Counted from the stretch's first letter, positions 4,364 through 60,410 are shown. The stretch: 64,000 nucleotides of DNA from Candidatus Saccharimonadia bacterium (GCA_046597065.1 JBKJLI010000003.1:2807-66806); one strand, 5' to 3'. The notes: generated by a model from the sequence alone, not told the origin. Made by a program: numbers and translations.

Positions 4364-4820
4364 GTTCTAGCACCCGCGTAAACCGCACCGGTTCTTTTAG
4401 TAACCTGGTTCGAAACGACCAGTCAAACACCTTGTTGGTGGTACGCATAATCATACCGCCACCAATATCGGGGCTAACTAAAAACTCCACCATCACTTCG
4501 GGGGAGGTGTTCTTTCTGAGCCAGCTAACCAGCTCCCGCTTCATGGTGTGGGGTGCTGTTGCCGCTAAGGTAAGACTAACGCTGGGGGCAGCCGCCAGGT
4601 GATGCTCCATCTCGCTCACCAGCGCATTAACAACATCGGCCCGGCTGCTATCGGCTCCCTTAATTTCTACAAACAGGTCGGTCGACTCAACCGAAAGCTC
4701 TGGTACAACTGCATTTGAACCGCGCTGGCGCTGATCAAGCGCGTCGGCATAGGCCTTTAACTCATCAATGCAAAAGCGCAGGTGATCTGGCGAATAGATG
4801 CTACTTGGAAGCAGTGCCAC
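4356..4820 (-). CDS. atpH: F1Fo ATP synthase delta (OSCP) subunit
   Basis: 154 aa between atpF and atpA. Helical N-terminus, conserved C-terminal region, operon position. Confidence 0.7.
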   Translation of the reverse strand: MALLPSSIYSPDHLRFCIDELKAYADALDQRQRGSNAVVPELSVESTDLFVEIKGADSSRADVVNALVSEMEHHLAAAPSVSLTLAATAPHTMKRELVSWLRKNTSPEVMVEFLVSPDIGGGMIMRTTNKVFDWSFRTRLLKEPVRFTRVLERV

Positions 4821-5427
4821 TTGTAATCTCTCGCTTTAACTCATCACGATGGCGCTCTAAGTTGGCCAGTAAGTAGCTGCGCTGCGCACCTAAATCGGCA
4901 TCTATACCCAAACTCTCTACAATATAGGCGGCCACGGCGGCACCCAACTTTTTATCAAGCTGGTCCATTAAATACTGCCGACGCTTAACCATTTCGGCGT
5001 CCATATCGCCCTCTAGCTCGGTCTGCTTTTGCTCGACGGTGGATTCCATTTTGCGCAACGCCGCTATGGCCTGTTCGCGAGCATTAGCTAAACTAACCCG
5101 GTAATCTTCAAGCTCACGCTCTACCACATCGGTGGTTAAGTTAACTATCAGTTTGTTTAATTGAGTCGAAGTTGTCGCCAAATCTTGGTGAAAACCTTTG
5201 GCGGCTGCAGCAACGGCTTGGCGGTAGGCCTCTTGAGTGCTAGTTTGCAGGCGCGCCAGTTCGGCTTCGGTAATATGAGGTATTTCTGGCAGCGGCGCCT
5301 GCTGCTGAACAGCCTCGGCCTTATCTTGTTCAACAACTTCAGTTGGCCGCCGGCTAAGCATCAGTGCCAGTAGGATTGCTCCAACGAGCACCCCTCCGAC
5401 TACCAAAATAATTTGAATGGTTGTCAT
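4801..5427 (-). CDS. atpF: F1Fo ATP synthase b subunit
   Basis: N-terminal single TM helix (IQIILVVGGVLVGAILLALML) followed by a long charged coiled coil. Operon position. Confidence 0.65.
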   Translation of the reverse strand: MTTIQIILVVGGVLVGAILLALMLSRRPTEVVEQDKAEAVQQQAPLPEIPHITEAELARLQTSTQEAYRQAVAAAAKGFHQDLATTSTQLNKLIVNLTTDVVERELEDYRVSLANAREQAIAALRKMESTVEQKQTELEGDMDAEMVKRRQYLMDQLDKKLGAAVAAYIVESLGIDADLGAQRSYLLANLERHRDELKREITSGTASK

Positions 5428-5433
5428 TTCACC

Positions 5434-6282
5434 CTACCTCGTTAACACCAAAAATGCTGCACTCATGGCCAGCCCTAAAACTAGGATACTTATTGCAATC
5501 ACCTGCCACAGCCCGCGATATATGCTCGACTGCGCCAAGGGATTTCGACCGATTGATACCATCGTACTGCGCACCGCCGAAAACAGCAAAACTCCAACCG
5601 CTATCAAAGAGCCTATCAAAATCACTGCACTCAAAATAATCCGCACCAGCGAAACTTGCTTGCCGGCCAGCTGGTTTGCAAACAGCTGTAAAAACTGCGG
5701 AACATAGGTTTTTTGCACCGGTGCAACGTAGTATGTAACCTGTAAATTGGCGGCCACCGTGCCCAGTTTAGCGGTTTTGGTGCTACCGTCGCTGCTCTTT
5801 ACTTCAACCGTTTTGGAACCATATTTAGCATCAGACTGGGCCGTACCAACCACCTTGCCCGACTCGTTGGCCTTCATCCCAACTCCAGAAATAGGTGAGG
5901 GCGCAATGATATCGCCGGCCTTAACCTCACCATTTAGGTCGCTTACAAAAGCCTCGGCCTGACCGCTGGTTGAAACCTGAAAAAGATCACCAGGGCTGCT
6001 AACTGCTAGGTTTGCTTCGGTAGTACCAACCACTACACCAATTAGTCCGGCCGAGTTACTGGTGTCAGCCAAAATTGCTTTGCCCTTTTCGCCATCTTTT
6101 AAAGCCACCAAGCTACCCGCCGAAAGCGTAGTGTCTGATCGGTAGCCCTGGCTAATAGCCGCCGCTGTTACACTTGGCGACAGTGCAAGCACCAGCACAA
6201 GTAGAGCTAGGCTATTAGCCAGCCTGCGGCCAATACCTTGAGTCATAGTTACCTTCATCTGTTTGTGCGAAATAAGCCTCAC
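5434..6282 (-). CDS. Secreted Gly/Ser/Thr-rich protein with C-terminal two-helix membrane anchor (hypothetical). It occupies the position where atpB/atpE would be expected.
   Basis: Signal-peptide-like N-terminus (RRLANSLALLVLVLALSPSVTAAA), about 180 aa of low-complexity extracellular region, then a C-terminal two-TM hairpin. No a-subunit or c-subunit signature is present. Confidence 0.45.
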   Translation of the reverse strand: MRLISHKQMKVTMTQGIGRRLANSLALLVLVLALSPSVTAAAISQGYRSDTTLSAGSLVALKDGEKGKAILADTSNSAGLIGVVVGTTEANLAVSSPGDLFQVSTSGQAEAFVSDLNGEVKAGDIIAPSPISGVGMKANESGKVVGTAQSDAKYGSKTVEVKSSDGSTKTAKLGTVAANLQVTYYVAPVQKTYVPQFLQLFANQLAGKQVSLVRIILSAVILIGSLIAVGVLLFSAVRSTMVSIGRNPLAQSSIYRGLWQVIAISILVLGLAMSAAFLVLTR

Positions 6283-13929: not shown

Positions 13930-15165
13930 TTGAATAATTTAATACTCAATCAACCAAGGAGCCGCGTGGCCACCCCTAAATCTGCAGACCATTCCCGACC
14001 ATACTTGGTAATCCCAAAACTAATTGAACAGCCTACTTGGGGTGGCAGCTACATAGCCACAGCCAAGGGCTGGCACAGTCGTCCGCTACTGGCTAATCGT
14101 AAGATTGGACAGTCCTATGAGCTATTTTCTGGCAGCAACCTGTCGCTGGCTAAGGACTCTAGGGACTTAAATTTTATCGGCGAACTAACCGATCGAGACG
14201 CCGTGCAACTCCCGACAAAGGTTTCAAAAACCGTTTCATTAGCCGACCTATTAGCGATATCGCCGACTGAAGTACTTGGCAAAACCATTGCCAAACGCAC
14301 TGGCAACCAGATGCAACTATTAATTAAGTTTACTCAAGCTAGGGGAAATTCATTCCAGCTACACCTAAAAGACGGTGAATCTCACCCCCGATGGACTCCT
14401 AAACCCGAGTCATGGTACTTTTTTGAACCCGGCATTGCCACGCTGGGAGTTAAGCAGAATATCGACTGGCAAGCCTACGAAAGCGCAACCTACCAACTAG
14501 ATCAGGACATTAGATCTATCGGGCACAGGCTGGCATGCAATGAAATAAGCCATGCCAAAGCACTGAAAGAAGTTAATGAACACCTCAACGCAACCAACCC
14601 CCATCAACACGTAAACTTGGTTCATGTACCCAAGAACCAGTTACTAGATTTAACCGCCGGTGGAGTTCATCATTCCTGGGAGGAAGACGACCAAGCGGCG
14701 CCACTGGGAAATGTTTTATATGAGCTACAGTTAGAGGCTATGGATGATGTTTCAACTCTGCGAAGCTTTGATAAGGGGCAAATGGGGCCAGACGGATCCA
14801 CGCGAGATCTGCACATTAAAGATTATTTCGATATTATTGATCGCTCACCTGCTGCTAACGAACCAAAAACCTACCTGCGCCAACCACAGCAAATTATTAC
14901 CGGCAGCGATTATACTCTCGACCAGCTAATGAACAGCTCCTATTATGGCCTCGACCGTCTTAACTTCCACGATTCCAAAGCCATATATACTCGCAATATT
15001 GATCAGTTTAACCACGTATTCGTTAAAAATGGTCGGATTAAACTTTCAGCTGGCGATGTTGAACTAACTATTACCGGCGGGCATTCAGCTTTCATACCGG
15101 CAGTAGTCAAAAATTACGCTATCAGTGCCCAAACTCCCGACACTGAAGTATTAATTAGTTACTGA
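13930..15165 (+). CDS. Cupin-fold sugar isomerase-like protein, possible type I phosphomannose isomerase
   Basis: PTWGGSY near the N-terminus and a QLHLKDGESHP region loosely resemble the PMI WG motif and QVHP(N)..E metal-binding motif. Context with manC/gmd/fcl in this window supports a GDP-mannose route. Assignment is weak. Confidence 0.3.
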   Translation: MNNLILNQPRSRVATPKSADHSRPYLVIPKLIEQPTWGGSYIATAKGWHSRPLLANRKIGQSYELFSGSNLSLAKDSRDLNFIGELTDRDAVQLPTKVSKTVSLADLLAISPTEVLGKTIAKRTGNQMQLLIKFTQARGNSFQLHLKDGESHPRWTPKPESWYFFEPGIATLGVKQNIDWQAYESATYQLDQDIRSIGHRLACNEISHAKALKEVNEHLNATNPHQHVNLVHVPKNQLLDLTAGGVHHSWEEDDQAAPLGNVLYELQLEAMDDVSTLRSFDKGQMGPDGSTRDLHIKDYFDIIDRSPAANEPKTYLRQPQQIITGSDYTLDQLMNSSYYGLDRLNFHDSKAIYTRNIDQFNHVFVKNGRIKLSAGDVELTITGGHSAFIPAVVKNYAISAQTPDTEVLISY

Positions 15166-20206: not shown

Positions 20207-20482
20207 CTAAGTAAAATGGCCTACAAGCAACCCAAGCATCACAATTACCCCTAAAAGACGGCGTGCAAGCGTGCTGCCGTCACTAATTTCTAGATATGCC
20301 CAAGTAAACAGAAAAGCTGCGCCCAGCCAACCAATGCCGTTTTTTAAGCTTCCGTCTGCTAAAAAGCGTACCAATATTGCGCACATAGCCCAGCCTATTA
20401 TTGGAGCATTCGGGCTTTGAGTCACCACCACCTTGCCATGCTTGTCTTTAAATAGGCGATCAAACCAGCTTTTGGCTGCCAC
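20207..20482 (-). CDS. Small membrane protein (hypothetical, 2-3 TM)
   Basis: 91 aa, hydrophobic. Start/stop overlaps the downstream gene. Confidence 0.35.
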   Translation of the reverse strand: MAAKSWFDRLFKDKHGKVVVTQSPNAPIIGWAMCAILVRFLADGSLKNGIGWLGAAFLFTWAYLEISDGSTLARRLLGVIVMLGLLVGHFT

Positions 20483-21435
20483 TAGTTACCTTCTACAATC
20501 GGCTTTATCTCCTCGTTAAAGATTTTTGAAACCATTTCGGTGTAAGTGGCAATGTTTTCTTTAAAATACTGGGGCTGACTTTTTTGAATCTGAGAAATGG
20601 TGTAATAACCAACCGCCATCATCGCGCCATAACCGGCATTTTCGGGCAGAGGCACATAAAAGCGATTTTCGGGCTTACCCCAAGTTGTGTTTTCCTCGCC
20701 AAAGCTAATAAACAACTCATCCGATGGCGCTACAGTTGTGGCATGTCGAACATTTTCAGAGGTTTCAATGTCTCTAGCGATATTGCGTCCAAATAGCTCA
20801 ATAAACTTTACGTGCAACATTCGAATAATGCCCGAAAACTGCGGCGGAATAATTAAGTAATATTTGTTGTAGCTACCAAACTCCGGCCAGTTTAGTTTAT
20901 CGGTTGAATCCAGCAGATATTTTTCGATCTCAGCCGGATCTTCGCCAGTTTCAGATAAGATCATGCCCATATAGGTAGATGCGTTATAGGTGTATGGTTC
21001 GCGGTTCTTGGGGTAGATATACTGCGCTAAATCCTCGGGCTTAGCAAAAACCTTGCTAGCCGGTGAATCGGGCGTATTGGTTATGAGCGTTACGTGTTTG
21101 CCGTATTTCTGAGCAGTCCGGGCAATGATTGGGGCATGCTTACCCCCAGATGCCGATAATAGTACTACTTCATCGATGTCTTTAATAAACTTAAGTTTTT
21201 CCTCAACATCACTTTCCGATGCATATAAAGCATTGGTGTCGCGAAAAATGATCTGACCGGCCGCCACAGCGTTACCCGAACCCACCACCAATGGCAGCTT
21301 ATAGGCATCAAGCTCCAACTTTGACAGCGGCTTTTGCTGAAACAGCTCAAGTGCCGCCAGCACAACCACATCTAAATCTGGGATCGAGTTTATGTCAAAG
21401 TTTTTTAAGGTTTCAATATGTGATGATTCTGCCAT
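20482..21435 (-). CDS. SIS (sugar isomerase/phosphosugar-binding) domain protein
   Basis: LPLVVGSGNAVAAGQIIF and VVLLSASGGKHAPIIARTAQKYGKHVTLITN resemble the SIS-domain nucleotide-fold motifs seen in GmhA/KpsF/hexulose-6-P isomerase. Confidence 0.4.
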   Translation of the reverse strand: MAESSHIETLKNFDINSIPDLDVVVLAALELFQQKPLSKLELDAYKLPLVVGSGNAVAAGQIIFRDTNALYASESDVEEKLKFIKDIDEVVLLSASGGKHAPIIARTAQKYGKHVTLITNTPDSPASKVFAKPEDLAQYIYPKNREPYTYNASTYMGMILSETGEDPAEIEKYLLDSTDKLNWPEFGSYNKYYLIIPPQFSGIIRMLHVKFIELFGRNIARDIETSENVRHATTVAPSDELFISFGEENTTWGKPENRFYVPLPENAGYGAMMAVGYYTISQIQKSQPQYFKENIATYTEMVSKIFNEEIKPIVEGN

Positions 21436-23233: not shown

Positions 23234-23479
23234 CTACTTATGGCTTTGTGAATGTTTTTGTTTTGCTAAGGCCAGCCAGCCCAGTGCATTGATTGTAATT
23301 GTTACGGCAGAAAACCACAGCGACAGACTTACGTAAGTGATCGCAAAAGTTATTAAGACGCCGGCTGTGATTAAGCTGGTACTAAATGCTGGTTTGTTTT
23401 CACTGCGTAACGATGGAACCAGTGCCAGCGAAAAAATTAACGAGCCGGCTGCCAAAACAAAATCTTGCCATTTATACAT
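23234..23479 (-). CDS. Small membrane protein (hypothetical, 3 TM)
   Basis: 81 aa hydrophobic ORF lying immediately upstream of, and opposite in orientation to, the ABC-F gene (23545..25200). Confidence 0.3.
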   Translation of the reverse strand: MYKWQDFVLAAGSLIFSLALVPSLRSENKPAFSTSLITAGVLITFAITYVSLSLWFSAVTITINALGWLALAKQKHSQSHK

Positions 23480-23544: not shown

Positions 23545-25200
23545 ATGATTCTGGGTGTCGACATCGCGGAAAAAACGATTGGCGCCAAGGAACTTTTCCG
23601 AGGGCTAGAGTTTAGGTTGGAATTAGGCGAAAAGGTCGCTATCATCGGCCGCAATGGCGTTGGCAAAACAACATTGTTTAACATGCTTGCTGGCAACGAT
23701 AAAATTTTTATCGGCGAGGTCAAGGGTAGGCGCGGGCTTCGAATCGCCGCCACCAAACAAGAATTTCACGGCACTGGCGAGGTGACCTGCTACGACTATA
23801 TCTTGGACAATATTCCGGAATTCAGGGTACTACAAAAGATAATCGATGCATATCCTGAAAGCAAAGATCATAGCCAAAAAAATATCGCTGCTTATACCGA
23901 CGCCTTAGAGCGATTTTCGCAGCTCGATTACTTTTCTATTAAAGACAGAGTTTTTAATGCATTAGCGGTATACCAAATTGGACCCGAAGCGGCATTACAG
24001 CGGTTTAAAAACCTTTCTGGCGGACAAAAGCGGTTCGCCGATTTAGTGCGAGTAGAGCTATCTTACTCCGATCTGGCACTTGTAGATGAACCTACCAACC
24101 ACATGGACTATGTGGGCAAAGCAGCCTTTATTAACTGGCTCAATGATTCCTCACACGCTGTAGCGGTTATCACCCATGATCGCGACGTGCTTGCCAATGT
24201 CGACCGCATAATCGAGATTAAAGACAAGAAAGCCTACAGCTTTAATGGCAACTATCATGAGTATTTACGGCTTAATAACAGTTCAACGGTCGATAAAATT
24301 ACCGACTACGAAACCGGCCAGCGAACCCTAGATAATCTTTATAAGCAGTTAATAGCCGCTAAAACTAAAAAGTTAAACGCCAGCTCTGACTCGGCCAAAA
24401 AGTTTCGGATTATGGAGGATCGACTGCAACGGCAGTATGATGATTTGAAAGCTCAAGTCTCTAGGCCCGATTTCTGGATCGACCAAGAAAATGTCGCCAT
24501 GATGCCTGGCAAGGTTTCCGAAAAATATCATAAATATAAATCCAAAAATATCCGCATACTTGGTCATCAGGGCATCGATTCAATTCACGAATTACTCCGA
24601 ATTAATGGCCTTTCCCTTGGTTACGATCACCCACTCTTTGATTACGTTAGTTGTAATGTTTCCTCTGGAAGCCAAATTCAAATAAAAGGCCGCAATGGCG
24701 CTGGCAAAACAACCTTGGTCCGAGCCATTATTGCTGCATCCACTAGCGAAACTCCCCCATCTACTACCTTTGCGGGAGAGATCTTGCCTCATAAAAAAAT
24801 CAAAGTGGGTTTTTACGAACAGGAAATCAGCGAGCATTACTTACGCCTAACGCTTGCCGACGCAATTAAACAGACCTACCACGATAAGGACGTGCCAATC
24901 AATGACCAAAAGGTTAAGCAGATAATGGCCGACTACTTATTCGATCCTCAAATCGATGGCAGGCTTAGGGTAGAGCAGCTTTCGGGTGGGCAAAAAGCCC
25001 GTTTGCAAATAATTAAGATGCTTTGCAATAAACCGAATCTACTCATTCTGGACGAACCTACTAATCACCTAGACCTGCCTTCGGTAGAAGAGCTAGAAAA
25101 CGCCCTCACCAAGTATGATGGAGCAATAATCTTTGTGTCACACGACACCTTTTTTGCCAAAAACTTTGACGCCGAAGTCATTCAAATTGGGGAACAGTAA
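23545..25200 (+). CDS. ABC-F family ATPase (tandem ABC domains, no TMD). Likely ribosome-associated translation factor or ARE-type protein.
   Basis: Two NBDs (GRNGVGKTT...LSGGQKR...LVDEPTNHMD and GRNGAGKTT...LSGGQKARL...ILDEPTNHLD) with an inter-domain linker. The real start is probably ATG ~23545 (MILGVDIAEK...), not the track start at 23386. Confidence 0.85.
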   Translation: MILGVDIAEKTIGAKELFRGLEFRLELGEKVAIIGRNGVGKTTLFNMLAGNDKIFIGEVKGRRGLRIAATKQEFHGTGEVTCYDYILDNIPEFRVLQKIIDAYPESKDHSQKNIAAYTDALERFSQLDYFSIKDRVFNALAVYQIGPEAALQRFKNLSGGQKRFADLVRVELSYSDLALVDEPTNHMDYVGKAAFINWLNDSSHAVAVITHDRDVLANVDRIIEIKDKKAYSFNGNYHEYLRLNNSSTVDKITDYETGQRTLDNLYKQLIAAKTKKLNASSDSAKKFRIMEDRLQRQYDDLKAQVSRPDFWIDQENVAMMPGKVSEKYHKYKSKNIRILGHQGIDSIHELLRINGLSLGYDHPLFDYVSCNVSSGSQIQIKGRNGAGKTTLVRAIIAASTSETPPSTTFAGEILPHKKIKVGFYEQEISEHYLRLTLADAIKQTYHDKDVPINDQKVKQIMADYLFDPQIDGRLRVEQLSGGQKARLQIIKMLCNKPNLLILDEPTNHLDLPSVEELENALTKYDGAIIFVSHDTFFAKNFDAEVIQIGEQ

Positions 25201-25238
25201 TTAACTTTTTATGTTTATGATAGCTAGAACTGCCATAT

Positions 25239-25627
25239 TTATTTCAGCTTGAAGTCGAAAACCAAAAATGGATCGTCATCCTCGATCTTACGTCCAATAT
25301 AATCATAGTATCCCGATAGAACTTCACGCTGATGCTCTTTATCCTTATATGATTCATGTGTGCCTGTTTTGATGGGTATATTTTTAAAAATGGTCGTGGA
25401 TTTATCTTCAATCTTGGCCTTACCGACAATCTCCTTTGTGTCAGAGTTTTGAATGCTTACATTGTCTCCTACCTCGAGGTAGTCATATTTATTGCCGAAT
25501 CTGTACGTGGTTAGCTTCTTTTGCTCAAGGATAAATCGCACCAGCTCCGGCGCAAATGGAATTACATAAGCATCTGGACTGTACTCAGTAGGATTTATGG
25601 ATGTAGTATCCGGTACTCGGTAATTCA
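25239..25627 (-). CDS. ASCH (PUA-like) domain protein
   Basis: APELVRFILEQKKLTTYRF fits the ASCH signature (..I..G.KT.E.R). The start is probably the internal ATG ~25627 (MNYRVP...), because the conserved leader module occupies 25628-25686. Confidence 0.5.
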
Positions 25628-25686
25628 TGACCCCATGATAACAAAAACGACCTTTCGGTCGTTTAAGCATAAGTGCAATGGCTCAC
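25628..25686 (-). repeat. Leader module copy R5 (GAGCCATTGCACTTATGCTT-AAACGACC-GAAA-GGTCGTTT-TTGTTATCATGGGG)
   Basis: Shares the tRNA-Asn 3' flank sequence and the hairpin with R1-R3. Sequence is written on the minus strand. Confidence 0.7.
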
Positions 25687-25706
25687 CCTAAGGGACGATT
25701 TTCAAA

Positions 25707-26111
25707 CTATAATGACGGTCCAAGCCAATTACTGGGGATAGCATACTTCTCAACTGTACCAGCTGGAACATCACCGTTACCTTCAAAAATAATTGTCCAA
25801 GCGCCGTTCTGTTTTGATAAATAAATGTGACCGCCGCCGCCCTCTCCATTGGTCACTACATGCGCCAAGCTTGACTCCTTGTTCTCAATCTTGCAGTTAG
25901 TATTGCCCGTGCACTTTGCTGCTTTAAGAATTTGGTCGTCTTCACTTAAATTATTCTTAGTTTCGACTGCTTTAACTACAGTTTTTGTTGAATCATTGGC
26001 GACCTGACGTGCGGTATAAACGTATACTCCTCCGCCAACTAGCAAACTAGCTAGGAGGACAAATAATACTACTTCTAATCCGGAGAATCCTTTTTGATTG
26101 AGTTTTTTCAT
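25707..26111 (-). CDS. Type IV prepilin-like N-terminal domain protein (small pseudopilin/pilin)
   Basis: N-terminus MKKLNQKGFSGLEVVLFVLLASLLVGGG carries the class III signal G|FxxxE with Glu at +5, followed by a hydrophobic helix. Confidence 0.5.
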   Translation of the reverse strand: MKKLNQKGFSGLEVVLFVLLASLLVGGGVYVYTARQVANDSTKTVVKAVETKNNLSEDDQILKAAKCTGNTNCKIENKESSLAHVVTNGEGGGGHIYLSKQNGAWTIIFEGNGDVPAGTVEKYAIPSNWLGPSL

Positions 26112-26191
26112 GAGTGCTCGCCTGTTTTGAACTAAGAGTAGCTAAAAATAAGCATAAGTGCAATGGCTCCGAGTGGTAATGGAAGTTAGAA
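26112..26191 (-). repeat. Leader module copy R4 (GGAGCCATTGCACTTATGCTTA..., hairpin replaced by unrelated sequence)
   Basis: Conserved GTTAGAACT boundary motif at the upstream stop and CGGAGCCATTGCACTTATGCTT core. The hairpin portion is absent. Confidence 0.6.
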
Positions 26192-27010
26192 CTAGTATCC
26201 AGGGTGATCAGGAAACAACGGGTCAACGAGGCGAGCGGCCGTTAAAAGCTCTTTATCGCTAAACTTTTTCCGAATTACTTTTTCCCAACCCTCACCACTA
26301 TTACTCGGGTCGGCTGGACTAACCGATCTTTTCCAATCTAAATGCTCGGATAGCTTGTTATCTTCTGGGTTACGACGGGTGTAGTGCAGGACTTGGCAAT
26401 TAAAGATTTTTACTCCCGGCTCCTTTGATTTATCCATTTCTACCCACTGCTCAATTGTCATACGCTCAAGAATAAAGCGAAACGCAGACATAACCTCACC
26501 ATGGCACACAATTATCACTCGCTTGTCTGAGCATTCACGGTGAAGTGTATTGAGGATTGGGCGCAGGCGATTGGTAAGTTGGGCGATTGACTCACCGTTG
26601 GGAGGAATCCAATAAAATGGGTCTGTGTCCCTCTGTTTTAACGACTCTTCAGACAAATGCAGGCGCTCTTCCGGCGGCTTACTGTCAAAATCACCCCATT
26701 CTCTTTCTCTCAATAGTGGCTCAACAAACCAGTTTGGACCATCAATTTCAAGCAATCCCGCCGTCTCCACAGCTCGGGTGTAGGTTGAAACGTATCGGCG
26801 GTCGAAGAAGCCAAGTTCATTATCTTTAAGCCACCCGCCGGCTTTTTTTGCCTGTGTCCTTCCTTTAACTGTAAGTCGGTGCTGCGAGCCGTGACGACTT
26901 CGGAATGCCTTTGTATATAAACTGCTATCACCCTTCTTGGCAAAATGGGATGCCAGGTTTTGTTCAGATTGGCCGTGGCGAACAAGAATTAAGTCAATTG
27001 GCATTGCCAT
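26192..27010 (-). CDS. Histidine phosphatase superfamily (branch 1, phosphoglycerate-mutase-like) protein
   Basis: LILVRHGQSEQN (RHG catalytic motif) and a later IIVCHGEVM (catalytic His). Confidence 0.7.
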   Translation of the reverse strand: MAMPIDLILVRHGQSEQNLASHFAKKGDSSLYTKAFRSRHGSQHRLTVKGRTQAKKAGGWLKDNELGFFDRRYVSTYTRAVETAGLLEIDGPNWFVEPLLREREWGDFDSKPPEERLHLSEESLKQRDTDPFYWIPPNGESIAQLTNRLRPILNTLHRECSDKRVIIVCHGEVMSAFRFILERMTIEQWVEMDKSKEPGVKIFNCQVLHYTRRNPEDNKLSEHLDWKRSVSPADPSNSGEGWEKVIRKKFSDKELLTAARLVDPLFPDHPGY

Positions 27011-27104
27011 GTTTAATACTCCCTACTCCCATCATAACAAAAACGACACTTTCAAGTCGTTTAAGTATAAGTGCAATGGCTCCGGTTCCTACAGGATGTT
27101 AGAA
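27011..27104 (-). repeat. Leader module copy R3 (AGTTCTAAC...CCGGAGCCATTGCACTTATACTT-AAACGACTT-GAAA-GTGTCGTTT-TTGTTATGATGGGAGTAGGGAG...)
   Basis: Near-identical to the tRNA-proximal copy R1. Includes a GGGAG RBS 10 nt before the ATG. Confidence 0.75.
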
Positions 27105-27641
27105 CTATTCACTCAGGTGTTTGAGCAAAAATACCGCCGAGTTACCGTACCCGTATTGATAATCGTTAATCCTACCTGCGTTCTGGTACCCGTTCTTTGC
27201 ATAAAAATGGATAACCTTTTCATCGTCTTCATTAGTATAAACAAACATCTTGGTAGCGCTTCGCCCACGAGCTATCTGTTCAGTTGCTTCCAGTAAAAGA
27301 CTCCCAGCTCCCTGGCCGGCAAATTCTGGTTCAATGGCCATTATTACGATTACCCACTTCTCCTCGCCCTCTAAACCATTTATGGGGCTTTCTTGCTGGG
27401 TGTAAACAAAGCCAATAGTTCTGCCATTATTCAAGATGACTACGCATGCTCCACGGTTTGCGCGGATTTGCGCTGCCATTTCGTCAAAAGAGAACCATTC
27501 CGAAATGTTTGCGTCTGACGTTTTCCCGAAGGCACGCTCTGCTATGCTACGAAGTTCTGACATTTGATTATCCGACTTGAGAAGTTCTGTGTGCATACAT
27601 AAATGATACCAAAAAACGACCCTCTTGAGTCGTTTAAGCAT
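27105..27641 (-). CDS. GNAT-family N-acetyltransferase
   Basis: The acetyl-CoA binding region (EPEFAGQGAGSLLLEATEQIAR) is diagnostic of GNAT and occurs with other conserved blocks. The biological start is probably the internal ATG ~27563 (MSELRSIAER...), since the first 26 codons of the track ORF translate the leader-module hairpin. Confidence 0.65.
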   Translation of the reverse strand: MLKRLKRVVFWYHLCMHTELLKSDNQMSELRSIAERAFGKTSDANISEWFSFDEMAAQIRANRGACVVILNNGRTIGFVYTQQESPINGLEGEEKWVIVIMAIEPEFAGQGAGSLLLEATEQIARGRSATKMFVYTNEDDEKVIHFYAKNGYQNAGRINDYQYGYGNSAVFLLKHLSE

Positions 27642-27671
27642 AAGTGTAATGGTTCCTGGTGGTGATGGAAG
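27564..27671 (-). repeat. Leader module copy R2 (AGTTCTAACTTCCATCACCACCAGGAACCATTACACTTATGCTT-AAACGACTC-AAGA-GGGTCGTTT-TTTGG...)
   Basis: Same module with 2-3 substitutions in the tRNA-derived core (GGAACCATTACAC) and loop AAGA. Confidence 0.7.
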
Positions 27672-28328
27672 TTAGAACTTTAGCAGCTGTCTAACTTTCG
27701 GCATGACTTTACTGTATATAAATTCATGGCCATCATCATTTGGGTGGACGCCATCAATTAATAACGCCTCTTCGCCCTTTGCTTTAAACTCATCGTAAAT
27801 TCTGATGCAGGGAATATGATTTTCTCTACATACCGCATGGAGTATTATATTAAATTTCGTTATGCGATCATTATCATAACATTTACCCGTAGAGGAGCTC
27901 TCAAGCGGAGTAGTTTTCCCCTCGTCCACCGGAGGAATCTCGATAAAAAAGATGTTTCTATCACTATATTCTTTAGCCCTAGCCACCAATTTATTGAGCG
28001 AATTTCGATACTCTTCTTCGCTGGTCTCATACTCAATTTTACTTAGGTGTTGCTTCCGATGAAGGGAATCGTTTGTCCCCGTTGCGAATATAAATGCATA
28101 CTCTTCTCCATCCCATAGCCTAGCCTTGGTTTCGTTATCAAATCTTTCTAGAATAAGCTCGGCTGTATTCCCGTCAACACCAAGACTAAACACCTTGTTA
28201 TAGTCTTTTATACCGTTGTCGACTTCGTAGGCTTGGACTGCAGCCTTTACCCTATCGGCCCAACCACCCTTACTATCCCAAAGGCCCTGAGTAATACTGT
28301 CACCGTAAATAAATATGATCATACCCAC
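27672..28328 (-). CDS. SGNH/GDSL-family hydrolase (lipase/esterase/acyl-esterase-like)
   Basis: IFIYGDSITQG (GDS block I), a Gly-containing block, and a C-terminal DGVHPNDDGHEF (DxxH catalytic pair). The track start is GTG (28328). ATG at ~28322 (MIIFIYGDS...) is equally plausible. Confidence 0.7.
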   Translation of the reverse strand: MGMIIFIYGDSITQGLWDSKGGWADRVKAAVQAYEVDNGIKDYNKVFSLGVDGNTAELILERFDNETKARLWDGEEYAFIFATGTNDSLHRKQHLSKIEYETSEEEYRNSLNKLVARAKEYSDRNIFFIEIPPVDEGKTTPLESSSTGKCYDNDRITKFNIILHAVCRENHIPCIRIYDEFKAKGEEALLIDGVHPNDDGHEFIYSKVMPKVRQLLKF

Positions 28329-28374
28329 ATCATAACAAAAACGACCCTTTCGAGTCGTTTAAGTATAAGTGCAA
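28323..28374 (-). repeat. Leader module copy R1, the native tRNA-Asn 3' flank (TTGCACTTATACTT-AAACGACTC-GAAA-GGGTCGTTT-TTGTTATGATGTGGGT)
   Basis: Directly contiguous with the tRNA 3' end (...CCCCGGAGCCA). Hairpin is a 9-bp stem with GAAA (GNRA) loop followed by UUUUUGUU. Confidence 0.75.
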
Positions 28375-28449
28375 TGGCTCCGGGGGCCGGACTCGAACCG
28401 GCAACCTACTGATTAACAGTCAGTTGCTCTACCATTGAGCTACCCCGGA
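28375..28449 (-). tRNA. tRNA-Asn (anticodon GTT), CCA-encoded
   Basis: Minus-strand sequence TCCGGGG-TA-GCTC-AATGGTA-GAGC-A-ACTGA-CTGTTAA-TCAGT-AGGTT-GCCGG-TTCGAGT-CCGGC-CCCCGGA-G-CCA. It has a 7-bp acceptor, D stem GCTC/GAGC, anticodon loop CU-GUU-AA, T loop TTCGAGT and 75 nt. Confidence 0.9.
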
Positions 28450-28451
28450 AT

Positions 28452-28520
28452 AGTACCTAAGTACTCCGAAAGTATACTTCTCGAGACTCAACCTGGTCAA
28501 ATCTCAATCATAGGGGTATG
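28452..28520 (-). promoter_or_regulatory. Putative tRNA-Asn promoter (-35 TTGACC, 18-nt spacer, -10 TATACT) with an AGTAC-N4-GTACT inverted repeat between the -10 and the tRNA 5' end
   Basis: Minus-strand sequence is TTGACCAGGTTGAGTCTCGAGAAGTATACTTTCGGAGTACTTAGGTACTATT followed by the tRNA. The same 80-nt gap must also hold the plus-strand cfa promoter. Confidence 0.35.
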
Positions 28521-29898: not shown

Positions 29899-30519
29899 TT
29901 AGTATTTGCGAATCACTCCAATGCAAACTCCCTGTATCTTAATGGGCGTATCAGGCTTAACGATAATCGGAGCATAGGCATCGTTAGCCGGCTGCAGTCG
30001 GATGTGATTCTTTTCTTTAAAGTAGCGCTTTAGGGTAGCCTCTTCGCCATTAATCAGTGCTACCACCATTTCGCCGTTCGAAGGCACCGTCTTTTCTTGA
30101 ATCACCACATAGTCGCCCTCAAAAATACCGTCATTAATCATGGAATCGCCCTTAACTTGCAGCACGTAGGAGTGGCGAGTACCGACCATAAATGGTGGCA
30201 CTTCTAGAGTTTCGGTATGACCCGACATGGTTTGAATTGGTTGGCCGGCCGCAATAAGACCCAGAATTGGTAGGCCCACCGAACGGTCTTCATCAAAATC
30301 GTCTGGGGTGACTATTTGTAGCGAACGAGCCGAATTATCGCTTTTCTTTAATAAGCCCTTAGAAACCAGCGTTTCAACATGATCGGCCACGGTTGCTACC
30401 GATCCTAAGCTAAAAGCTTCGGCAATTTCTCGGTAACTGGGCGCGTAGCCATTAAGCTCGATCGATTGACTAATGTAATCGAGAACCTCTTTTTGTCTTT
30501 TGGTTAATGGCTCGGCCAT
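29899..30519 (-). CDS. lexA: LexA repressor (SOS regulator, S24 peptidase)
   Basis: N-terminal winged HTH (LTKRQKEVLDYI...), cleavage-site region and C-terminal S24 domain (GDSMINDGIFEGDYVVIQ...; VALINGEEATLKRYF with Ser/Lys dyad). Confidence 0.9.
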   Translation of the reverse strand: MAEPLTKRQKEVLDYISQSIELNGYAPSYREIAEAFSLGSVATVADHVETLVSKGLLKKSDNSARSLQIVTPDDFDEDRSVGLPILGLIAAGQPIQTMSGHTETLEVPPFMVGTRHSYVLQVKGDSMINDGIFEGDYVVIQEKTVPSNGEMVVALINGEEATLKRYFKEKNHIRLQPANDAYAPIIVKPDTPIKIQGVCIGVIRKY

Positions 30520-32388: not shown

Positions 32389-33330
32389 CTACTTGAGTCG
32401 GCTCTCTATATTTCTCAGAACAGCGTGCTGCTCCTCGGTTTCAGCGTGTTGCCGCAATATCATCAAATTAGAATTGAGCCTAGCCTCAAGTATAGACAAG
32501 TCGTTCTCGTCACCCGTCGTGCGAACGTCTTCATAACCTGACTCCCTGGCTCGAAGAACCGCCTCTGCTTCCCGCTGAGCTGTATCAAACTGGGTTGGCG
32601 CCCTTCGAATCTGTTCGGGCTGCACTACAACATCGGGTAAAACACCACTCTCGGCGTCATATTTCCTACCAGCTTTCCATGCCGCCTCATCTCCTCTTAA
32701 AGTATCTAGCCGGCTTTCATATCTTTCCATCTGGGCGGCGTTTCTTAAAATACTAGCCTCATCCTCATCGCCAATCGCCTCGGCTACTCTAGCCTCTTCA
32801 TTAAGAGATTTTTCGGTTGCATGCAAGAGGGAGGCCCGAGAAAGCGCACTAGCCGCCGCTTCGGCCATCGCCCTAGCTTTTTCGGGGTCATCAACTCTAT
32901 GCTTTGACCCCGCTTCTGCTTGTCTTGGCTCTCCTGCGAGCTCTTGCTCCTCATCATAGATGGCAGCTGCAGCGTCCGCAGCCCTTGGCGCCTGCTCTCT
33001 TTTGGCAGCTGCTCGGTTCCGCTGTTTCTGAAGCTCCGACCCAAGCTTGGCTATTTCTTGCTTACGCTGACGACCGGCTTTTGTTAGCCCCAATCTGTCA
33101 AGAAGTGTGCTTTCTTCTCGAGCTTTTTCGAGTGACGCTTCGAACTTACCCGCCAACCTTTCGCTTGCCTGAGCGTCAGTGATATAACGATCCATATGAT
33201 TAGCCGTCATTTGATCGCGACCTTCGTCCGTTTCACCGGTTTGTGCACCAACCTCGTGCCCTAAGTTTGCGGCTTCATTTTCTCCGGCTCGAAACTCTGA
33301 CTCTCCGCTAGATTCACCCTTTTCGGGCAT
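32389..33330 (-). CDS. Highly charged Ala/Glu/Arg-rich predicted coiled-coil protein (hypothetical)
   Basis: 313 aa of low-complexity charged helix-forming sequence. No catalytic motif. Preceded by a degenerate copy of the cassette leader module. Confidence 0.45.
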   Translation of the reverse strand: MPEKGESSGESEFRAGENEAANLGHEVGAQTGETDEGRDQMTANHMDRYITDAQASERLAGKFEASLEKAREESTLLDRLGLTKAGRQRKQEIAKLGSELQKQRNRAAAKREQAPRAADAAAAIYDEEQELAGEPRQAEAGSKHRVDDPEKARAMAEAAASALSRASLLHATEKSLNEEARVAEAIGDEDEASILRNAAQMERYESRLDTLRGDEAAWKAGRKYDAESGVLPDVVVQPEQIRRAPTQFDTAQREAEAVLRARESGYEDVRTTGDENDLSILEARLNSNLMILRQHAETEEQHAVLRNIESRLK

Positions 33331-33344
33331 GACATTTCCTCTTT

Positions 33345-33385
33345 TGGCTTGCTTATGGTGTGATCATAACATAGAAGCATAAGTG
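33345..33385 (-). repeat. Degenerate, hairpin-less copy of the cassette leader module (CACTTATGCTTCTA-TGTTATGATCAC)
   Basis: Forward strand tgatcataaca-tagaagcataagtg is co-linear with the R1-R5 forward sequence atcataacaaaaacgac[hairpin]gtttaagcataagtgcaatgg. A separate 7-bp-stem hairpin (CCCCGAG..CTTGGGG, 33391..33410) lies just upstream. Confidence 0.4.
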
Positions 33386-33538
33386 AAACTCCCCGAGCTG
33401 ACGCTTGGGGCAGCGCGTGGGAATGAGTGCAGCCCTTGCCACCCAACAGCTGTGCATATGCCATTTTGACTGAAAAATATTTCAATATGCTCGACCAAGA
33501 ACTACAGACTACCGAGAATTGCTCCGCATAGAGCTTGG

Positions 33539-54151: not shown

Positions 54152-55561
54152 ATGTATATGAATTTGCTTAGATTCAGAAAGCTACTTGCCCAGAAAAAAT
54201 ACTGGGTTATTGTGCTTATTGCAGTCCTAACTATCTCAATGGGGGCACGGTTTAATATAAAAATGGGACTTTCGGGTGACGAGCCGCACTACCTAGTTAT
54301 GGCAAATAGCCTCAAAGTCGATCATGATCTGAATGTAAAAAATGATTACGGGCAAAAAAGATACTTGCCGTACTACCCCGACACATTAGAGCCGCACATA
54401 AATTGGGCTCTGGTACAACAGTCCGGCGAACGTTGGCATTCAATACACGGGCCAGGTTTACCTCTACTAATTCTGCCCGGGGTCGTTTTTAGCAAGCGGC
54501 TTGGGGCACTCTTGATAATGATTGGCTTCGGATTGCTTGCAGTTGTTGCCGGTATATCTATTTCAAAACTAGTAGCAAGCAAAGGGGCTTCTTTTTTAGC
54601 CGGGCTGATGTTGGCATTAAGTGTTCCATTCCTCGCTCTAGCTGGCTATATCTTCCCAGATATAGTGATCGGATCGTTAACTGCATTAACATTTTTGCTA
54701 ATTAACATGAAATCCAAAACTCTTTGGCGAGATGTGGCGATTGGGGTATTATCGGCAACACTCATTTGGGTGCACGTCAAAACCAGTCTAGTTGCGGGAT
54801 CTCTCATTTTAATTGCAGTTTGGTACATTATTGAAAGTTCTAAGGATCTTACCAATCGCAATCGCAGGCTGGCAGCATTACTTGTGCCTTTCATTCTTTT
54901 GACCGGCCTACTTCAATTCAAGTTTTACCAATGGTTCGGTGTGTTCACTCCAAATGGTATCTATAAGGGTAACAATCAGCTATTTCAGCTGAATCCGTTC
55001 AAGTCACTCTTAGCAATACTATTCGATCCATTTAAGGGTCTGCTAATAATGAGTCCTATATGGTTTTGTGCCGTCGTGGGTTTGCCAGAATGGTATAAGC
55101 GAAATAAGAAGCAATTGTTATTTGTATTAGCAATAGTATTGCCGAGTTTTTTCATTCAATCTACTTTTGACGATTGGGCCGGAGGATGGAGCCCGCCAGC
55201 ACGATATACCGTTCAATATTTACCAATCCTGCTGCCAGCACTCGCGCTTGGCCTGGAGCTAATGCTGAGTAACGCAAAGATGCGGATCTACGCATTTACC
55301 CTCATTGTGGCACAAGTTACTATCGCCGCGACCTATATATTATTCAGGACTCCATGGGACTTCGCTGGTCACGAAGCTCCGTTTATTGTTGATTTGAAAG
55401 ACTCATTACATTTGAATTGGCTACCTACAATATTTTTCGACAACCATGCAAACCCTACAAAAGCTGGGATTGTAGTTATTTTAAGTAGCTTTTTCGTGAT
55501 GACTGCTTTATTAATTTTTAAAAAGTTTAGTCAATCAAGAAACAGCCGTAAAATAAGCTAA
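54152..55561 (+). CDS. Polytopic membrane protein, GT-C-like (candidate second lipid-linked-sugar transferase)
   Basis: About 12 TM. The first external loop has GLSGDEPHYLVMANSL (DE..Y motif as in ArnT/PMT/AftA-type GT-C). Confidence 0.4.
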   Translation: MYMNLLRFRKLLAQKKYWVIVLIAVLTISMGARFNIKMGLSGDEPHYLVMANSLKVDHDLNVKNDYGQKRYLPYYPDTLEPHINWALVQQSGERWHSIHGPGLPLLILPGVVFSKRLGALLIMIGFGLLAVVAGISISKLVASKGASFLAGLMLALSVPFLALAGYIFPDIVIGSLTALTFLLINMKSKTLWRDVAIGVLSATLIWVHVKTSLVAGSLILIAVWYIIESSKDLTNRNRRLAALLVPFILLTGLLQFKFYQWFGVFTPNGIYKGNNQLFQLNPFKSLLAILFDPFKGLLIMSPIWFCAVVGLPEWYKRNKKQLLFVLAIVLPSFFIQSTFDDWAGGWSPPARYTVQYLPILLPALALGLELMLSNAKMRIYAFTLIVAQVTIAATYILFRTPWDFAGHEAPFIVDLKDSLHLNWLPTIFFDNHANPTKAGIVVILSSFFVMTALLIFKKFSQSRNSRKIS

Positions 55562-56031
55562 CCCCGCTTCTTTACCACCAGCCGGCGTCTTTTATCCTCG
55601 CCCCGGCTCTCGGTGGTAACGTGCTCGTGATCGGTAAACAGTGAGTGAATCTGGCGGCGTTCGGCGGCGTTCATTTGCGGCAGCGGCACCTCATCTTCCT
55701 CACCATCGGCCACCTTACGAGCAGCTTCGTGGGCGCGTTCGGCAAGCCGTTCTAAGCGGCCCTGGCGGTAGCTTCCAACATCTATGCGTACATACACTCG
55801 TTCGGCGGTTAGGCGCCTGATCATCATGTTTAAAACGTGCTGAAGCGCCTCTAGAGTTTCACCCCTATGCCCAATTACGTGGGCTCCGTCTTCGCTTGCT
55901 ACTGCGAGCAAAATTGTGTCTTCGTCGCGGATTACAGTAGCCTCCGCATTAACCCCAAAAAAGGCCAGCAAGTCCTCAAACTGTTGCTTGGCCGCCGCCT
56001 CAACCGCACTTCCGGTTAACTGCTCCCTCAT
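55558..56031 (-). CDS. jag: KhpB/Jag-like RNA-binding protein (KH + R3H domains), minimal form
   Basis: KH-like GHRGETLEAL and R3H (LPQMNAAERRQIHSLFTDHEHVTTESRGE..RRLVV). Conserved position downstream of yidC. Confidence 0.65.
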   Translation of the reverse strand: MREQLTGSAVEAAAKQQFEDLLAFFGVNAEATVIRDEDTILLAVASEDGAHVIGHRGETLEALQHVLNMMIRRLTAERVYVRIDVGSYRQGRLERLAERAHEAARKVADGEEDEVPLPQMNAAERRQIHSLFTDHEHVTTESRGEDKRRRLVVKKRG

Positions 56032-56873
56032 TTGCGAGCTCGCTTGCCGCCCTTTTTGCGCGCCTTGGCCTTTTTAGCTGAAGCAACCGGTTCGCTAGAA
56101 GCCAGTGTGCGAGTGGTGATCTTGCTTACTCCGGTTTCACCAACCACCTCCATTTCGTGGGCATCGCGCAGTAGCACGTGGTACTGCTGATAAACCGCAA
56201 TCGCGCTGGTAACCGTCCAGTATAGGGCCAAAGCCGAGGGCAGCGTTAAGCCGATGCCAAAGGTTAATATTGGGAAAAGGTAAATGATGTTCTGCATCAT
56301 CCGGACCTGGGGGTCGGTAGAGGCGGCGGCACCCTTGGGCTGTAGCATCTTGCTTTGGTAAAACTGGGCGGCGGCGGCGGTTAGCGCCAAAAACCAGCTA
56401 GGCTGGGCCAGGTTAATCACCCCAAACAGCGTTGGTGAAAAGCTTCCCGGGTTGGCGATAACGTTGGCCACTTCGGGGATGCGCTCAACAAAGCCGTAGG
56501 TTAGCTTGGCAATCTGGTCACCATGCACGGCGTCGCTAAATACAATGTAGATGGCAAAAAAGATTGGCAGCTGAAATAACAGCGGTAAAATTGGGGCCAG
56601 CGGGCTGGTACCCTTTTCTTTATACAAATCCATCATCATCTGGGTTTCAAGCTGGCGATCACCACCGGCCTTGGCCTTCACCTTGGCAATTTCGGGGGCC
56701 AGCGCTTGCACCTTCTTTTGCGAGTGCAGTTGCCTAGTTACTAGCGGCCAAATGGCTAGCCGGACTAAAACGGTTAGCAAAATAACCGCCAGGCCAAGAT
56801 CATGACCAGGCAGCCATCCATAAATGGCAAACAGAATGTTAAATAATGGTTGAACAAAAATTACGGTAAACAT
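56028..56873 (-). CDS. yidC: Membrane protein insertase YidC (short, Gram-positive-type)
   Basis: 5 TM with a YidC/Oxa1 core. C-terminal Lys/Arg-rich tail (KKAKARKKGGKRARK). Sits in the rnpA-yidC-jag cluster. Confidence 0.85.
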   Translation of the reverse strand: MFTVIFVQPLFNILFAIYGWLPGHDLGLAVILLTVLVRLAIWPLVTRQLHSQKKVQALAPEIAKVKAKAGGDRQLETQMMMDLYKEKGTSPLAPILPLLFQLPIFFAIYIVFSDAVHGDQIAKLTYGFVERIPEVANVIANPGSFSPTLFGVINLAQPSWFLALTAAAAQFYQSKMLQPKGAAASTDPQVRMMQNIIYLFPILTFGIGLTLPSALALYWTVTSAIAVYQQYHVLLRDAHEMEVVGETGVSKITTRTLASSEPVASAKKAKARKKGGKRARK

Positions 56874-56887
56874 ATCTAAACCTGTCT

Positions 56888-57244
56888 CTACTTGGCTTTT
56901 GAGCCGTTAATTAAATCGGCCTTGGTTAACACCTCTACCACCAGCTTTTCCAGCTGGGCGGCGGTTTTGGCGCTAAGATCGGCGCGTACCGTCACTACTA
57001 TATCGTATCCGGGGGCGACTGTCTGCCACCCGCGTTGAGCCACTCCCACGATCTGTCGACGCAAACGGTTGCGAACGGTTGCGCGTTTAGACACCTTTTT
57101 ACTGACAATCACCACCAAACGGCTTTCGGCGTTGCCATTACGGGCCGATCGCACCAGCAGCTCTGGGTTTGATACTCCCCGACCCTGCTTAAAAACCCGC
57201 GAGATTTCGCGGGGTTTTTTTAAACGGTTGGGAGCTGGCAGCAC
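56888..57244 (-). CDS. rnpA: Ribonuclease P protein component
   Basis: 118 aa, basic. RNR-like motif region (VRNRLRRQI). Immediately downstream of rpmH. Confidence 0.8.
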   Translation of the reverse strand: MLPAPNRLKKPREISRVFKQGRGVSNPELLVRSARNGNAESRLVVIVSKKVSKRATVRNRLRRQIVGVAQRGWQTVAPGYDIVVTVRADLSAKTAAQLEKLVVEVLTKADLINGSKAK

Positions 57245-57253
57245 CAGAGCGCC

Positions 57254-57391
57254 TTAAATTGCGACGCGCGTTCGGCCCTTGGCCCGACGTCGTTGCAACA
57301 CGGCTCGGCCGGCGCGACTAGACATGCGCTTTAAAAAGCCATGGACGCGTTGGCGGCGGGTTTTCTTTGGCTGATACGTTCGCTTACTCAT
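57254..57391 (-). CDS. rpmH: 50S ribosomal protein L34
   Basis: 45 aa, [45 protein letters not shown]. Below the 60-aa ORF-track threshold but unmistakable. Confidence 0.9.
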
Positions 57392-57626
57392 ACTCGAGAC
57401 ATCATAGCGGTTTTGAGCCTACAGGTCAATCCGTTGTAGGAGGTTAAAAGCGAACACTAAATTTGTTTTTCCCCGAAATTAGCCGATTTATCCCCCTTTT
57501 TACATCTGTTGCTGTATACCCTGTGGACAGAATGTATTAAAATTTCATGGTTGTGAGTTAGCCGCAATTACGGTTATGATTGAGCTATCAAACGACACTA
57601 AATTGCGTTTAAAACGGTGGAGGTTT
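57392..57626. promoter_or_regulatory. oriC part A (rpmH-dnaA intergenic): dnaA promoter region with DnaA-box-like motifs TTTTCCCCG, TTATCCCCC and TGTGGACAG
   Basis: The motifs match the TTATCCACA consensus at 7 of 9 positions. The region is AT-rich. Confidence 0.4.
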
Positions 57627-60383: not shown

Positions 60384-60410
60384 CGGCTGCCGTTTAAATA
60401 AGATCAGACC

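Follow-up and report, generated by a model that had tools for sequence, protein, structure and literature searches.

Intrinsic (Rho-independent) terminators, among them the "bidirectional" kind with an A tract and a U tract that follows tRNA genes, combine a short G-C-containing stem with a loop of 3 to 8 nucleotides (nt) and an immediate U tract, lie just downstream of a tRNA or a stop codon on the sense strand, and keep their structure while their sequence turns over between lineages, with G.U pairs tolerated. A hairpin that shares these features occurs in four of the five inter-gene repeats (R1 to R5) of a gene cassette array behind a tRNA-Asn gene in Candidatus Saccharimonadia bacterium (GCA_046597065.1, JBKJLI010000003.1:2807-66806; this whole stretch of 64 kb is referred to as the window). 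We conclude that it is probably the stem-loop of an intrinsic terminator, either of the tRNA or of the preceding cassette. It differs from described terminators in being part of a repeated module that the inserted cassettes carry at their 5' edge and in being fused to an extended -10 promoter, with the U tract supplying the TG of the TGn motif. The hairpin belongs to a well-known kind, and the array is the more unusual of the two.

In Actinobacteria and Deinococcus, extended -10 promoters give rise to leaderless mRNAs, and the locus shares with these systems a TGnTAnnnT box 6 to 7 nt before the start codon and the lack of a Shine-Dalgarno sequence; the difference is that in this lineage the architecture is read from spacing statistics only. 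With integrons the array shares co-oriented, mostly single-gene cassettes with unrelated accessory functions, one apparent anchor site, a conserved element that overlaps each stop codon, and a content that differs between close relatives. Unlike an integron, it has no IntI or other recombinase in the 64 kb (Pfam scans) and no attC-type palindrome, it is anchored at a tRNA gene's 3' end, and its cassettes do not depend on Pc but bring a promoter each and in many cases a terminator as well. Genomic islands anchored at tRNA genes, with partial copies of the tRNA 3' end, arise by tandem accretion of integrase-borne elements, for example in Prochlorococcus. As in these islands, direct repeats of the last 9 to 11 nt of the local tRNA (Asn, Gln, Tyr, Arg, or His) bound the inserts, but here the inserts are single genes of 0.2 to 1.4 kb without integrases, and a fixed 29-nt right end is far more conserved between genomes than the genes next to it. 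The array resembles integrons in its logic and tRNA-anchored islands in its repeats, and it fits neither family.

RESULTS

Hairpin copies in the window

The array and its hairpins lie on the minus strand, and sequences are given in the RNA sense. An initial annotation had described the repeats as gene leaders with a stem-loop, and its hairpin sequences, loops, and coordinates for R1, R2, R3, and R5 agree exactly with a direct reading of that strand. The hairpin (AAACGAC..GTCGTTT) is missing from R4.

28360-28339, - strand, R1 hairpin: AAACGACTC-GAAA-GGGTCGTTT (also written AAACGACUC-GAAA-GGGUCGUUU), 9 pairs including one U.G
27635-27614, - strand, R2 hairpin: the R1 stem (AAACGACTC/GGGTCGTTT) with an AAGA loop, then TTTGG
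27062-27041, - strand, R3 hairpin: AAACGACTT-GAAA-GTGTCGTTT (also written AAACGACUU-GAAA-GUGUCGUUU), with a U-U mismatch and a U.G pair
25664-25645, - strand, R5 hairpin: AAACGACC-GAAA-GGTCGTTT (also written AAACGACC-GAAA-GGUCGUUU), 8 pairs
26112-26163, - strand, R4 module: upstream 15-mer kept, no hairpin, TTGCAC-17 nt-TACTCT, leader ending in GAGCACTCATG

The R1 hairpin begins 14 nt past the CCA of tRNA-Asn and is followed by TTGTT. Across the four copies, the minimum free energy (MFE) ranges from -7.1 to -10.8 kcal/mol, the stems have 7 to 9 pairs with 3 to 4 G-C pairs, and the loops measure 4 nt except in R3, where RNAfold opens both the mismatch and the U.G pair to leave 7 bp and an 8-nt loop. 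Folding of the five leaders, which the initial annotation had proposed, gave energies below those of shuffled sequences for R1, R2, and R5 (z = -4.9, -3.3, and -3.1, respectively) and a marginal value for R3 (z = -1.5), while R4 (z = -0.55) had no structure; hence four hairpins and not five are considered here. A 28-nt core around the hairpin start occurs four times in the window, against zero expected. An extended R1 pairing of CACUUAUAC with GUUAUGAUGUG drawn by RNAfold was discarded, as its register differs in R2 and R5. Rfam searches (at the gathering threshold and, for positions 25100 to 28500, at E <= 5) returned only the tRNA and one chance match.

All of the sequence features of an intrinsic terminator are found here, namely, a G-C stem-loop, a U tract, and a position downstream of a transcription unit. 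A consensus scan scored R1, R2, R3, and R5 as terminator-like on the minus strand with at least 5 T's in the next 8 nt (5 to 6 in all four copies when counted after the trimmed stem), and hairpins stand 36 to 42 nt past the stop codons of the array genes g1, g2, and g4. Other plausible intrinsic terminators lie elsewhere in the window, e.g., after 57576-58991 and 56028-56873, and thus the organism appears to use intrinsic termination. A terminator separating cassettes was one of the roles offered initially, and it is the one that we find to be the best reading.

Variation among the window copies is limited. Seven of the nine stem pairs are invariant across the four hairpins, and no base pair is swapped; pair 8 is U.G in R1 and R2, U-U in R3, and lost from both arms in R5, and pair 9 is C-G except for a U.G in R3. 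The paired 1-nt indel in R5 consists of a T gone from the 5' arm and a G gone from the 3' arm. The window therefore holds one double-sided event (the R5 indel), one neutral change (C-G to U.G), and one disruptive change (in R3). The compensatory variation described initially comes down to that one paired indel, which is too little for a statistical claim alone, and, because the four copies descended from one another, variation within the window cannot carry an argument for selection. Template switching that "corrects" imperfect palindromes is an established mutational mechanism, and the R5 indel could also stem from quasi-palindrome switching of this type.

This bears on the possibility that the copies are passive relics, in which case the tRNA-Asn terminator would have been duplicated with an att-like repeat at each insertion, would function only at the tRNA, and would be neutral elsewhere, with the paired indel arising from template-switch correction of the imperfect palindrome and not from selection. 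The decay of R3 speaks for such a history, as do the hairpin of R4, lost or never present, the 94% identity of the R1 and R3 modules over 62 nt despite unrelated downstream genes, and the closest relative that we found (L075/L077; L numbers denote loci in other genomes), in which only the tRNA-proximal module has a hairpin. However, the stems and U tracts of R2 and R5 are intact even though their modules are only 61 to 65% identical to R3 (ungapped comparison), and other genomes also have hairpins at internal junctions away from the tRNA (L062, L063, L054, L058, L080, and L082). We consider it unlikely that the internal copies are such relics.

Hairpins at the same position in other genomes

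Scans with CCATTGCACTTATRCTTA(AA) found matches in many Saccharimonadia contigs and chance matches in unrelated taxa. In the Saccharimonadia contigs, the 15-mer that precedes the hairpin follows either a remnant that resembles a tRNA 3' end or the CCA of a genuine tRNA, i.e., Tyr (L015 and L043), Gln (L023 and L038), Arg-tct (L057 and L061), or, in the window, Asn. Many copies have no hairpin. Ten further copies carry hairpins of unrelated sequence directly after the final TTA of CCA-TTGCACTTATGCTTA, most with T-rich tails, such as AAATAACGGCTC-GATG-AGCCGTTATTT, AATAGACTTC-TTCG-GAAGTCTATT, AAAAGAGTCC-TTTG-GGATTCTTTT, and AAGAGCCAA-GTT-TTGGCTCTT; genuine tRNA-Tyr and tRNA-Arg genes are among the sequences that such hairpins follow. 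Between 5 and 7 T's fall in the 8 nt after the stem in 8 of these 10 positional analogs, and 2 to 4 in L033, L040, and L054. The GNRA tetraloop emphasized initially is not conserved: GAAA is found in R1, R5, and L075, R2 has AAGA, the loop is opened in R3, and the analogs vary (e.g., UUCG, UUUG, GAUG, or CUCGU; 3 to 6 nt).

A covariance model derived from the four copies in the window was used to align 26 sites, in which 96.5% of the cells are paired and 8 of the 9 pairs show double-sided changes. None of 500 shuffles equaled these values, and slid controls paired 39 to 65%. Genome and metagenome scans found no true homologs of the AAACGAC hairpin beyond L075/L077, which has the R5 form, and R-scape-type statistics on true homologs are therefore impossible. 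The two strands are not equivalent: G.U pairs that turn into C.A on the opposite strand are present in 7 of 15 hairpins, and the summed MFE of the 15 is -145 kcal/mol in the sense orientation versus -110 kcal/mol in antisense. The comparison indicates that a hairpin at this position is under RNA-level selection on the coding strand, whatever its sequence or loop type. Selection on RNA structure, as proposed initially, is thus borne out through other genomes, where the variation from R1 to R5 alone was insufficient. Sequence turnover, varied loops, and strand asymmetry are together the behavior of an intrinsic terminator and not that of a GNRA motif or of a protein or recombinase site.

A DNA-level element, either a recombination site (attC-like, an HUH/IS200-like end hairpin, or a cruciform) or a palindromic operator, would serve cassette capture or regulation, and we regard it as very improbable. 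The hairpin does lie at a fixed 15 nt from the apparent cassette junction (CCA|), in an array that resembles serial site-specific insertions, and its stem and the -35 region of the promoter that follows overlap. However, the hairpin sequence varies among cassettes with the same 15-mer, while recombinase or repressor sites should be conserved, and R4 and many other cassettes have none. Furthermore, the G.U pairs make the opposite strand and the duplex cruciform worse, the element is only 20 to 22 nt long with no R''/L''-L'/R' boxes and no GTTRRRY, the right end has no matching hairpin, and Pfam scans found no integrase or transposase in the window.

Among specific candidates, an attC site, defined as an imperfect palindrome of 57 to 141 nt with R''/L'' and L'/R' boxes (R' = GTTRRRY), was rejected given the short palindrome; GTTATGA does not fit GTTRRRY, and the spacers contain no long inverted repeat. 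The end-hairpin model of the IS200/IS605 type was rejected as well, on the unconserved sequence, the many hairpin-less cassettes, and the missing right-end partner. A LexA gene (29899-30519, - strand) lies near the array, a placement that L075, L078, and probably also L008 retain. The modules showed no motif resembling a LexA box, and the idea of a LexA operator was dropped, as the stem sequence is not conserved between genomes.

Extended -10 promoters and gene starts

The U tract of each hairpin is followed by an extended -10 box (consensus TGnTATSAT), which is placed exactly 6 nt before the ATG in R1, R2, and R5.

28329-28337, - strand, R1: extended -10 box TGTTATGAT, then GTGGGT (6 nt), g1 ATG at 28322
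27603-27611, - strand, R2: extended -10 box TGGTATCAT, then 6 nt, g2 ATG at 27596
27031-27039, - strand, R3: TGTTATGAT, then a 20-nt leader with AGGGAG (27019-27024), ATG at 27010
25635-25643, - strand, R5: extended -10 box TGTTATCAT, then 6 nt, g5 ATG at 25628

The window contains 14 matches to TGnTAnnnT-N6/7-ATG, all but one of which (13) open an open reading frame (ORF) of at least 80 codons, whereas spacers of 2 to 5 and 8 to 12 nt together give 9 matches and 1 long ORF. The pattern also precedes ordinary, non-cassette genes, at 38057(+), 50201(+), 22659(-), 21435(-), and 7378(-), with further gene starts of this type at 23479(-) and 13878(-). Judged by these spacings, transcription of leaderless mRNAs from extended -10 promoters appears to be the usual mode in this genome. 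With the box at the genome-typical 6 nt from the ATG, the hairpin would lie upstream of the transcription start of the next gene, and in R1, R2, and R5 the presence of the box between hairpin and ATG contradicts the earlier description of the hairpin as a leader element. A hairpin followed by a ribosome-binding site, also described initially, is found only in R3, where AGGGAG stands 8 nt ahead of the ATG; no Shine-Dalgarno sequence at a usable spacing is present in R1, R2, or R5.

The reading that the initial annotation preferred was a processing or stability element, which here would lie in a polycistronic transcript from the tRNA promoter, with the hairpins as sites of RNase cleavage or protection. 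The tRNA and the five genes are indeed co-oriented with very short spacers, the moderate stability of the hairpins makes read-through plausible, the hairpin-less R4 makes cotranscription of at least g3 and g4 possible, and tRNA-like remnants stand before each module. Nevertheless, each hairpin module has its own extended -10 box 6 nt from the ATG, so that a shared promoter is not needed, and the position of this box puts the hairpin outside the downstream mRNA. The U tract is a hallmark of terminators that processing hairpins do not need, and the remnants have no 5' acceptor or T-stem partner and match no tRNA-like or other family in Rfam. A processing element has, in our estimation, a low probability.

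The prediction that ORF finders would translate the hairpin proved correct for g2 and g5, which are listed as 27105-27641 (178 aa) and 25239-25670 (143 aa), respectively, both overextended to an ATG inside CTTATGCTTAAACGAC. The public call for g5 (P0145) is also 143 aa and begins with MLKRPKGRFCYHGV, a translation of the hairpin, the U tract, and the -10 box. The corrected lengths are 163 aa for g2 and 129 aa for g5. The start of g1 is backed by the N terminus of a homolog (MIIFIYGDS versus MITFIYGDS), and that of g5 by about 70 ASCH homologs of 129 to 133 aa (MNYRVP.. versus M-x-F/Y-x-VP).

TTGCAC was also considered as the -35 element of the downstream -10 box and was rejected for the hairpin-bearing copies, where it is 32 to 34 nt away. 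It stands 16 to 18 nt before the -10 box only in hairpin-less copies (R4, L008, L013, L031, and L067), where it may serve as a -35 element. Pilin-like cassettes (N terminus KGF(S/T)xxE) have a common leader, ending in GAGCACTCATG, after TTGCAC-N17/18 and a -10-like hexamer, at 26112-26163 (-) in the window, L005 902, L031 2663, and L075 3780 and 2400.

The tRNA-anchored cassette array

The array consists of five genes behind the tRNA, with a repeat before each gene.

28375-28449, - strand: tRNA-Asn (GTT), whose 3' end ...CCGGAGCCA anchors the array
28500-28471, - strand: promoter-like site of tRNA-Asn, TTGACC-18-TATACT
27672-28322, - strand: g1, GDSL/SGNH hydrolase, 216 aa
27105-27596, - strand: g2, GNAT acetyltransferase, 163 aa
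26192-27010, - strand: g3, histidine phosphatase, 272 aa
25707-26111, - strand: g4, small protein with a prepilin-like N terminus (KGFSGLEVV), no Pfam match
25239-25628, - strand: g5, ASCH-domain family protein, 129 aa
28360-28374, - strand: conserved 15-mer TTGCACTTATACTTA (cassette left end), directly after CCA, its last A being the first stem base
27635-27649, 27062-27076, 26149-26163, and 25664-25678, - strand: other copies of the 15-mer
27650-27678, - strand: 29-nt right-end element GTTCTAACTTCCATCACCACCAGGAACCA, a mimic of the tRNA 3' end, with the g1 stop codon inside
27077-27105, 26164-26192, and 25679-25707, - strand: other copies of the 29-nt element
33360-33392, - strand: weak, hairpin-less partial module GGGGAG-TTTCACTTATGCTT-CTATGTTATGAT, upstream of ORF 32389-33330

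Each module spans about 60 nt and reads (tRNA or mimic ...CCA)-TTGCACTTATRCTTA-hairpin-U tract-TGnTATSAT-6 nt-ATG. As RNA, the full repeat consists of the 29-nt element GTTCTAAC-N12-..GGAGCCA, followed by TTGCACTTATRCTTA, the hairpin, UUUUUG, UAUSAU, 6 nt, and AUG, and in R1 the true tRNA 3' end stands in place of the 29-nt element. This element begins with GTTCTAAC or GTTTGAAAA and is 5 nt longer than the corresponding segment of the true tRNA (24 nt from GTTC to CCA). The stop codon of the cassette lies within or abuts its first 9 nt, and its last 9 to 11 nt or so equal the end of the local tRNA: ..GGAGCCA for Asn, ..CCCCAGCCA for Gln, ..ACCCGGCACCA for Tyr, and ..CTCGCCCCA for His. In the window, the remnants end in CAGGAACCA, CCGGAGCCA, TCGGAGCCA, and GGTGAGCCA, and the tRNA ends in CCGGAGCCA; elsewhere, the match to the local tRNA end covers 11 nt in L015, 10 nt in L023, and 9 nt in both L040 and L080. 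The partial module listed last lies across the tRNA from the array, at a distance of about 5 kb. The chromosomal origin region, in which jag (KH/R3H), yidC, and rnpA (-) face dnaA, dnaN, and recF (+) at 55558-61457, is about 30 kb from the array.

Homologs of the flanking CFA synthase are named only in Candidatus Saccharimonadales/Patescibacteria. In L075/L077, the CFA synthase is 85% identical and the CFA-LexA-VanW flank is the same, the cassettes are entirely different, and an identical hairpin of the R5 type lies beside tRNA-Asn. A GDSL homolog in L067 has only 66% amino acid identity, yet its 21-nt right end is identical. In L015, a single insert with its own hairpin lies between tRNA-Tyr and a second terminator that abuts a duplicated ACCCGGCACCA; this second terminator looks like the original one of tRNA-Tyr. 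A second class of left end, (A)GGAATTAT after CCA, was found at L008 2860, L040 1570, L048 455, L078 8856, and L080 4789, with a hairpin and U tract directly behind it in L048 and L080. Other tRNAs at the same loci do not have the motif, and thus it is not a general tRNA trailer. One cassette of a related array, in L067 (1680-3400), contains markedly GC-rich DNA with a 442-aa ORF in an AT-richer host genome, and it looks foreign, which suggests gene capture from other organisms.

A tRNA-targeted integrative element would be bounded by direct repeats of the tRNA 3' end, which are present, and would encode an integrase, which was not found in the cassettes or flanks of the window. Pfam scans of 50 window ORFs (most of those of at least 110 aa) showed no Phage_integrase, Resolvase, or transposase domain; ten of these ORFs had no Pfam match at all, including g4, g5, 4801-5427, 5434-6282, 13930-15165, 20482-21435, and 54152-55561. 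Precomputed Pfam lists of the flanks likewise contained no recombinase domain. Scans of viral contigs with the left- and right-end motifs and a blastn search with one module against phage and plasmid collections gave nothing or one chance match, and exact-protein look-ups of flanking and cassette genes found only Logan contigs of one sample, broken at repeats; Logan run SRR31159421 has the same contigs. The searchable literature, which is incomplete, held nothing relevant on cassettes, integrons, leaderless genes, or islands in Saccharibacteria/Patescibacteria.

Large serine recombinases are encoded at two other loci. One (L080 1466-3552; Pfam Resolvase, 643 aa) is directly upstream of the tRNA-His at the anchor of an array, and a second (L069 395-2041; 548 aa) lies near a cluster with a GDSL homolog. 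These are possible candidates for mobilizing enzymes.

DISCUSSION

From the anatomy of the sequence, the conservation of structure with turnover of sequence, the strand asymmetry, and the spacing of the promoter, all of which were observed directly, we infer both termination at the hairpin and the sites of transcription start. RNA polymerase that arrives from the preceding cassette, or from the promoter of the tRNA, would transcribe the hairpin and the U tract and stop there, and the 3' hairpin left on the upstream transcript would also protect that transcript. The U tract would run into the extended -10 promoter, from which the next gene would be expressed as a leaderless mRNA or, in R3, with a short Shine-Dalgarno leader instead. 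Each cassette would thus form its own insulated transcription unit.

Several points weigh against a terminator. The stability of the hairpins is modest (about -10 kcal/mol, with a G-C-containing core of 5 to 6 bp), and termination may be partial. The hairpin is dispensable, as R4 and many copies in other genomes do not have it; at R4, g3 may read through so that g3 and g4 are cotranscribed, and the weakened R3 suggests relaxed constraint in some copies. A terminator also leaves the strongly conserved 15-mer from CCA to the hairpin unexplained. Finally, the pair counts come from an alignment that was fitted to the structure and whose sites are positional analogs and not proven homologs, and the metagenome scan pattern required CTTAAA, which favors A-rich starts, though not hairpins.

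The facts on the array fit serial insertion right behind the tRNA CCA, either by att overlap or by a target duplication of about 9 nt. A crossover in the T-loop-like GTTC was rejected, as it would destroy the tRNA, and the right junction would then contain the 3' half of a true tRNA, which is not observed. A speculative reading, less probable than not, is that the hairpin module would be the 5' edge of a previously undescribed, integrase-less (trans-mobilized) gene-capture system of Saccharibacteria (TM7), in which short cassettes would be inserted precisely after the CCA of a tRNA (Asn, Gln, Tyr, Arg, or His). The left end of such a cassette would be TTGCACTTATGCTTA or GGAATTAT, in many cases with a terminator of its own and a leaderless promoter behind it, and the right end would be the fixed 29-nt element, GTTCTAAC-N12 plus about 9 nt in agreement with the end of the local tRNA. 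If this is true, the system would be a functional analog of integrons, with the tRNA 3' end acting as attI and with self-sufficient, insulated cassettes.

The practical value of the hairpin itself is modest: it corrects the starts of g2 and g5, and the error in g5 is already present in public annotation. Together with the TGnTAnnnT-N6-ATG rule, it provides a usable model of the transcription unit, a terminator with a leaderless promoter behind it, for a phylum with almost no transcript mapping. More broadly, these reduced-genome epibionts appear to keep a hot spot in which single accessory genes are stacked behind a tRNA as insulated units, and, judging from the loci compared, the single-gene cassettes appear to be exchanged among closely related genomes. 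Should there be a dedicated mechanism, it would give Patescibacteria a new way to acquire genes and genetic tools a natural "landing pad."

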